Below are positions 13,429 through 13,477 of a stretch of 64,000 nt of DNA, piece by piece. Made by a program: the position numbers and the translations under genes. Each line of letters begins with the position of its first letter. Position 1 is the first letter of the stretch. The notes under the pieces were generated by a model, which saw nothing but the letters and a program-made list of their open reading frames with translations, did not search any database and had not been told where the DNA came from. Origin of the DNA: Octopus vulgaris (taxonomy: Eukaryota); assembly GCA_951406725.2 (NCBI GenBank), contig OX597834.1:28644001-28708000 (forward strand). The letters are read 5' to 3'.

Positions 13429-13477
13429 TGACGTGTTTATTTCACTTTCATTTTCTCTCGCGCCATACCTATATAAA
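13429..13477 (+). promoter_or_regulatory. Promoter of ART-like gene 1: TGACGT (CRE-like), ISRE/IRF-type element, TATA box
   Basis: TGACGT at 13429; TTTCACTTTCATTTTC at 13440-13455 (reverse complement GAAAATGAAAGTGAAA); TATATAAA at 13470-13477; all conserved in copy 2. Confidence 0.65.

Follow-up and report, generated by a model that had tools for sequence, protein, structure and literature searches.

The stretch of DNA analysed here, referred to as the window, comprises 64,000 nucleotides of Octopus vulgaris (contig OX597834.1, positions 28,644,001 to 28,708,000) and contains a tandem duplication. Each of its two copies carries an uninterrupted ORF, preceded by a TATA box and an IRF-E/ISRE-like element (Table 1). 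Copy 2 encodes a protein with 97% identity to Octopus sinensis LOC118767389, and the ORF behind the motif shares 83% identity with O. bimaculoides A0A0L8FW52 and 58% with a protein of Argonauta (Ahia01_000971300). Because an in-frame stop immediately precedes both ATGs (TAA in copy 1) and the N-terminus MGKG is common to the octopus ORFs and the Argonauta protein, the start codons can be regarded as fixed. The presumed 3' UTRs contain ATTTA pentamers (three at 14667-14711 and two at 21897-21934), a weak observation in AT-rich DNA. A MITE-like inverted repeat with arms of about 190 bp, flanked by TA runs, lies upstream of copy 1 (~12300-12680) and is absent from the corresponding place in copy 2. 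The duplicated blocks 11299-12000 and 17737-18456 gave no Pfam match; judging from their motifs, they resemble a mariner-type transposase remnant.

Table 1. Features of the duplicated locus (positions within the window).
Feature	Positions	Strand	Remarks
Tandem duplication, first copy	~11299..15449	+	Self-BLAST pieces, approximate ends; contains old transposon-like block
Tandem duplication, second copy	~17737..22800	+	Self-BLAST pieces, approximate ends; extra repeat insertions
GAS-type palindrome TTCACAGAA, copy 2 only	20599..20607	.	TTCN3GAA near ISRE
TGACGTG, CRE/ATF half-site, copy 1	13429..13435	+	Not the full TGACGTCA
TGACGTG, CRE/ATF half-site, copy 2	20630..20636	+	
IRF-E/ISRE-like element TTTCACTTTCATTTTC, copy 1	13440..13455	-	Three GAAA cores, 6-nt period
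IRF-E/ISRE-like element, copy 2	20641..20656	-	16-mer identical to copy 1
TATA box TATATAAA, copy 1	13470..13477	+	
TATA box TATATAAA, copy 2	20671..20678	+	
Putative start site, copy 1	13502..13506	+	CA, A at 13503 = TATAAA+31; ~4 nt 5' UTR
16 nt missing from copy 1	20691..20706	+	Most of the initiator-like CAGTT; also pyrimidine tract and CAG acceptor ending at 20705
ORF of copy 1, uninterrupted, 304 aa	13507..14421	+	ATG at 13507; predicted ART-like fold; faster-evolving copy
ORF of copy 2, uninterrupted, 306 aa	20724..21644	+	ATG at 20724; predicted ART-like fold
AATAAA, likely polyadenylation signal of copy 1	14759..14764	+	
AATAAA, likely polyadenylation signal of copy 2	21990..21995	+	

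The preliminary description of this DNA had proposed that an IRF/ISRE consensus with three minus-strand GAAA cores at 6-nt spacing sits just upstream of the TATA box. Matched against the IRF consensus given in the available part of PMC7819612, the element indeed holds two full AANNGAAA half-sites, read directly from the minus strand and including AAGTGA and GTGAAA, and a third GAAA core. Both copies thus have three cores at the 6-nt period, of which an ISRE or IRF-E requires at least two, and the gap to TATATAAA is 14 nt. The positions given there for TGACGT, the 16-mer, TATATAAA and the ATG were right in both copies, as were the distances from TATA to ATG of 37 nt in copy 1 and 53 nt in copy 2. 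The fourth TTTC reported for copy 2 is present, but it is separated from the third by 4 nt instead of 6 nt; it is therefore out of register and adds no in-register site.

The TGACGT half-site, a hexamer with 11 occurrences in the 64-kb window (TGACGTG: four), is located 5 nt upstream of the IRF-type element. The IFN-beta enhanceosome combines ATF-2/c-Jun, IRF and NF-kB sites with a TATA box. The octopus promoters share with it the order of CRE-like site, IRF sites and TATA; they differ from it in that the CRE is a half-site only, a GAS palindrome is present in copy 2 and an NF-kB site is absent. The NF-kB consensus GGGRNNYYCC had 0 matches in the whole 64-kb window, and a looser NF-kB pattern was absent from the ~800 bp upstream of each ATG. 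Over the same ~800 bp, neither copy has an AP-1, full CRE, heat-shock or GC-box motif. The absence of an NF-kB site argues against an enhancer of the IFN-beta type and, together with the GAS palindrome of copy 2, makes the layout apparently resemble an interferon-stimulated gene more closely than an interferon gene.

This palindrome and an initiator-like CAGTT, both read from copy 2, are candidate elements that go beyond the first reading. The GAS consensus TTCN2-4GAA was taken from the available part of PMC7819612; TTCNNNGAA has 17 sites in 64 kb, corresponding to a chance of about 2.4% per 100 bp. The GAA of TTCACAGAA falls within 19 nt (20605-20623) missing from copy 1, which therefore has no GAS, and the GAS+ISRE composite is found in copy 2 only. 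That the sequence just upstream of TGACGT differs between the copies had been seen before, and the difference consists of a 19-nt indel and one substitution.

The triple GAAA GAAANNGAAANNGAAA occurs exactly twice in the 64-kb window, at these two promoters. Dinucleotide shuffling led to a mean expectation of 0.02 triples. We rejected this null model as too lenient because it predicts only 3.35 of the double GAAANNGAAA, of which 33 are observed, an approximately 10-fold underestimate. The excess of doublets is partly explained by a dispersed SINE-like repeat that carries a double GAAA. This repeat contains GAAACTGAAAG, often followed by TA runs, at 5208, 10858, 51310, 56637 and 61426 and in weaker form at 54681 and 61044; it scatters IRF-like doublets genome-wide, which inflates any ISRE scan. 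A stricter null was based on 49,830 bases, with repeats masked and copy 2 as well as both promoters left out. Here, the probability that any given 100 bp contains a triple was ~1e-4 under Markov models of orders 2 to 5 and 1.3e-3 by an empirical chain estimate, the latter equivalent to about one triple per 64 kb. None of the 25 background doublets in the masked bases extended to a triple, and GAAA doublets are over-represented in the window at period 6 (25 versus 3-15 at other periods). A triple at the promoter position is unusual, whereas its occurrence somewhere in the window may not be. As the motif was chosen post hoc, we estimate a corrected P of ~0.01-0.1 for ~100 motif families, which leaves moderate evidence for the element.

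In the preliminary description, conservation in both paralogues had also been counted in favour of the element. The 16-mer at 20641 is indeed identical, but this identity equals the background, and we rejected it as support. Of the 62 bp of the core, two are changed between the copies (3.2%), against 40 of 1508 (2.7%) in the pooled flanks, from which the far 3' block was excluded because it aligned poorly. Identical 16-mers make up 56-81% in five of the eight duplicated blocks compared and 18%, 29% and 47% in the other three, the 18% block being poorly aligned; a transposon-like block differs between the copies at 8 of 702 sites. At the divergence rate of the flanks, a 16-mer would be identical 65% of the time and a stretch as long as the identical run observed here (28 nt) 47% of the time. 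Since 16-mers and flanks are equally identical, the paralogues provide no evidence of selection on the element. Such background-level conservation is what one would expect if the TATA promoter were real and the TTTC repeat a chance pyrimidine-rich stretch that lacks IRF function and was passively copied by the recent duplication. The roughly one triple per 64 kb of the chain estimate and the enriched, partly repeat-borne period-6 doublets point in the same direction. We nevertheless consider this explanation unlikely, as no background doublet reaches a triple and the site lies at proximal-promoter distance, beside a GAS palindrome and before a gene with independent immune-like traits. The IRF-type element itself is real and probably functional, judging from its sequence, and of a kind already known in invertebrates, although the evidence in its favour is not that offered in the preliminary description.

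TATA-like boxes are common, with 300 outside TA runs in the window. Nine of them have a double GAAA at most 60 nt upstream, ten are followed by an initiator-like motif between +26 and +36, and the box at 20671 is the only one with both. In copy 2, the A of CAGTT at 20704 corresponds to TATAAA+31, and the elements follow each other in the order GAS, CRE half-site, IRF element, TATA, initiator and ATG. The sequence around this initiator also allows for a different reading, in which the segment forms the 3' end of a 5'-UTR intron: CTGAC would serve as its branch point, the TTTC repeats would be its pyrimidine tract and AG 20704-20705 its acceptor, and the real promoter would be further upstream. 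TTTCCTTTCTGACAG, located 18 nt ahead of the copy 2 ATG, would make a good acceptor, and copy 1 would otherwise have a very short UTR. Moreover, the salmon gig1 gene has a non-coding first exon and an ORF that begins a few bases into exon 2, according to the portion of PMC12247413 at hand, so such an arrangement does occur in immune genes. Acceptor-like sites are common, however (54 on the plus strand), and copy 1 lacks this AG, with only a GAG at 13484-13486, although its ORF is intact. In addition, about 50 nt with TATATAAA and another AG separate the tract from the AG, and the spacing from TATA to initiator is canonical. Both the upstream promoter and the assignment of the three splice signals therefore appear improbable to us.

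Taking the segment as a promoter, one indel on either side of the core distinguishes the two copies, and through these two indels copy 1 has neither GAS nor initiator. The promoter of copy 2 is the fuller and probably the ancestral one. Copy 1 looks derived on account of these indels, of two missing codons that all three other octopods have, of the agreement of O. sinensis with copy 2 at 27 of the 33 differing columns, and of its longer branch (0.097 versus 0.019 for copy 2). Branch lengths were calculated from 36 of 43 rows; those removed were an unrelated protein, a protein with a double domain and five fragments.

Several traits of the downstream gene are independent of the motif. The coding sequences of the copies differ at 55 of 915 positions (6.0%) versus 40 of 1508 (2.7%) in the flanks (Fisher p = 5e-5). 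As pN/pS between the copies is 0.59 overall, with pS raised too, this does not demonstrate positive selection; the fast divergence could be caused by diversifying selection or by conversion from another paralogue. Amino-acid changes cluster at residues 23-29, 98-109 and 142-159, mostly on the branch of copy 1, and several of the clustered differences are multi-base codon changes. The CpG observed/expected ratio is 0.97-1.04 in both coding sequences, ~0.9 over 6-34 kb and 0.40-0.48 from 35 kb on, with 0.48 in the gene body of PCNP. CpG depletion is linked to gene-body methylation, and the undepleted domain makes it less likely that the two genes are nested within a methylated gene. Tandem duplication, uninterrupted ORFs, fast divergence of the coding sequence and undepleted CpG are, as far as can be judged from the DNA, traits that would fit an immune effector.

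PCNP is the only other cellular gene found in the window. Its coding exons lie on the plus strand (40416-40640, 42188-42262, 43724-43779 and 44948-45065); PF15473 matched one of them (E = 2.7e-8), whereas the remaining three were located from their reading frames and splice sites. The Pfam scan covered 143 of 203 long non-repeat frames plus 90 short exon-like frames and returned three matches: PCNP, a mariner-type transposase remnant (49911-50123, minus strand, PF01359) and a zinc finger. The latter, a Zn_SUZ12 match at 35175-35384 (plus strand), had raised the possibility of nesting in SUZ12, which we rejected: it is a C2H2 frame and reads as a zinc finger ending a decayed LINE, presumably its 3' end. 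Nesting in PCNP was rejected as well, given coding exons that start at 40416 and a CpG depletion that starts near 35 kb, although PCNP may have a distant 5' UTR exon. At ~35-36 kb the ratio drops sharply from ~0.9 to 0.4-0.5 and stays low to the end of the window. This drop is probably the start of gene-body methylation, and its extent suggests another gene there.

A profile search of 1.84 billion representatives with the encoded protein gave 32 matches, 31 of them credible; P0008, an unrelated repeat protein, was dropped. Further searching added named family members in skates, rays and sawfish. The family has no Pfam name, and the nine named matches carry no annotation. Sequence searches of the protein against Pfam and PDB revealed no credible match, the PARP Pfam domain matched none of the scanned family members, Rfam gave no match, and Foldseek with the models returned nothing at E<=0.001. 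AlphaFold models of the octopus protein and a skate homologue reached a pLDDT of 75 and 89, respectively. The best structural matches were Tpt1 (Z 5.1, rmsd 3.2, 90 aligned) and DarT (Z 4.8, rmsd 4.7, 142 aligned), with Z-scores below the trust level of the tool. For the octopus model, 45 of the 50 listed structure matches are ART-fold proteins as judged from their titles, an assignment that we in part presume. The top seven matches of the skate homologue consist of four DarT, two Tpt1 and TreTu, and a language-model atlas led to DarT/PARP-like clusters (0.92 and 0.90).

Residue conservation is in agreement with these matches. H78 is kept in 29 of 30 and T80 in 28 of 30 aligned rows, and D/E277 in 35 and E217 in 32 of 36. 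H78-G79-T80 ends the predicted strand 75-80, at the place of the H-G-T/S of strand 1; H-G-T in this strand is described as an ART motif in the accessible part of PMC7955679. D/E277 directly precedes the predicted strand 278-285 and may correspond to the acidic residue with which strand 5 of ARTs begins. Taken together, the agreement among weak structural matches, the clusters of the atlas and the conservation of H78-x-T80 and D/E277 weakly suggest that the predicted fold is closest to the split beta-sheet fold of ADP-ribosyltransferases (DarT, Tpt1). The protein is thus a plausible octopus immune effector, possibly an ADP-ribose-transferring enzyme. Tandem duplication recurs in the family, as P0015, P0036 and P0038 indicate: there is a member with two domains in tandem, and a pair from Leucoraja has adjacent locus numbers (LOC129704121/2).

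DarT and Tpt1/KptA, which are nucleic-acid ADP-ribosyltransferases, are the closest solved folds; like the octopus protein, they combine a strand 1 His-x-Thr with a conserved acidic residue just ahead of a late strand. The octopus protein differs from them by an identity of only 7-19%, Z-scores below 5.2 and large helical and hairpin insertions. PARPs have a Tyr in strand 2, where the octopus model has a Trp (read from the model). Gig2/DreI of fish and amphibians, as portrayed in the available text of PMC3617106, are likewise tandem duplicates with a weak ART/PARP-like domain, and Gig2 is interferon-induced. The same text reports Gig2 as absent from invertebrates and 165 of 190 as matching a PARP-like domain model; by this description the octopus family, which is present in octopods and has no PARP Pfam match, would differ from Gig2, for which a PARP-signature-like N-terminus and a Gig2-specific C-terminus are characteristic. 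Gig1 (PTHR38706), which we had suspected, was rejected: by eye, the three salmon ORFs in Table S3 of PMC12247413 do not have the conserved motifs of the octopus family.

At the promoter level, the element resembles vertebrate ISRE/IRF-E sites, which switch on antiviral genes, and GAS+ISRE composites in its GAAA cores, at least two at a 6-nt period, in its AANNGAAA half-sites, in its apparent promoter-proximal position and in the nearby GAS of copy 2. Unlike vertebrate ISGs, it stands in an octopus, where the putative binder would be IRF1/2- or IRF8-like rather than ISGF3. Oyster IRFs activate ISRE reporters (excerpts of PMC5557890), and IRFs of scallop, oyster, amphioxus and shrimp bind ISREs, as cited in the accessible portion of PMC13524488. 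In Nematostella, genes induced by dsRNA show an enrichment of IRF/STAT motifs and of TATA boxes (PMC8476169). Shrimp Vago4 (PMC4602278) and oyster CgIFNLP (cited in PMC13524488), each as far as the portions at hand describe them, likewise have an ISRE-type site in a protostome immune gene; these sites are EMSA- or reporter-tested and belong to cytokine-like genes, whereas the octopus site is known from its sequence and would drive a putative enzyme. The octopod A. fangsiao has a gene annotated as IRF2 (available text of PMC10778463), and one supplement of that study contains no match for the gene described here. Our literature searches, mostly confined to papers outside subscription, found no study of a cephalopod ISRE promoter or of a promoter-level IRF/STAT regulon, no mention of LOC118767389 by name, and no description of this locus or of an animal ART family of this kind.

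The sequence analysis shows the motifs with their spacing, the duplication and its ORFs, the protein family and the pattern of divergence; start sites, all binding events, inducibility, catalysis and, weakly, the fold are inferred. With somewhat better than even confidence, we favour an IRF-bound and probably STAT-assisted TATA promoter that drives an inducible ART-fold defence gene. The 49-bp segment from TGACGTG to TATATAAA would be the proximal promoter of an immune-inducible gene. Upon a danger signal, the tandem GAAA cores, which lie ~55 nt ahead of the start site, would be occupied by an IRF of the octopus that is probably IRF1/2-like. Assistance may come from a bZIP factor bound to TGACGTG and, in the case of copy 2, from a STAT dimer bound to the GAS palindrome. 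TBP at TATATAAA would then direct transcription to start ~31 nt downstream, in copy 2 at CA(+1)GTT with a 20-nt UTR and in copy 1 possibly at 13503. The product would be a 35-kDa protein with an ADP-ribosyltransferase fold that probably modifies nucleic acid or protein in an NAD+-dependent manner. Copy 1, having lost GAS and initiator, would be diverging.

Blimp-1/PRDM1 has an overlapping specificity for GAAA sites. About as improbable as the other two alternatives is that a GAAA-recognising factor binds here without induction, as constitutive IRF1/2-type basal expression or Blimp-1/PRDM1 repression: IRF1 sustains basal defence-gene expression via such sites (accessible part of PMC7819612), an NF-kB site is absent and IRF2 of A. 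fangsiao was picked out in LPS-related and not in poly(I:C)-related modules (available text of PMC10778463), but TATA, GAS and three cores are typical of strongly regulated genes and the CpG profile is unlike that of the neighbouring housekeeping gene.

Returning to the inducible IRF-bound promoter, the element alone is ordinary, as shrimp and oyster promoters are already known to contain IRF sites. What makes it interesting is mostly the gene to which it points: it singles out, as a candidate immune effector, a protein family without a Pfam name whose fold is probably that of an ART. It would also supply a ready reporter for a cephalopod IRF/STAT regulon, and the two paralogues form a natural experiment: they have the IRF core in common, while GAS and initiator are present in only one of them. 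A far-reaching and doubtful extension is that the family represents DarT/Tpt1-like enzymes of an ancient lineage in animals, with viral nucleic acid as the target of their ADP-ribosylation, which are IRF/STAT-wired from octopods to cartilaginous fish. If true, it would be an overlooked core effector of the interferon-stimulated type, older than interferon itself, and the octopus copies would be splitting into one that is STAT+IRF responsive and another that is IRF-only with a rapidly changing target surface.
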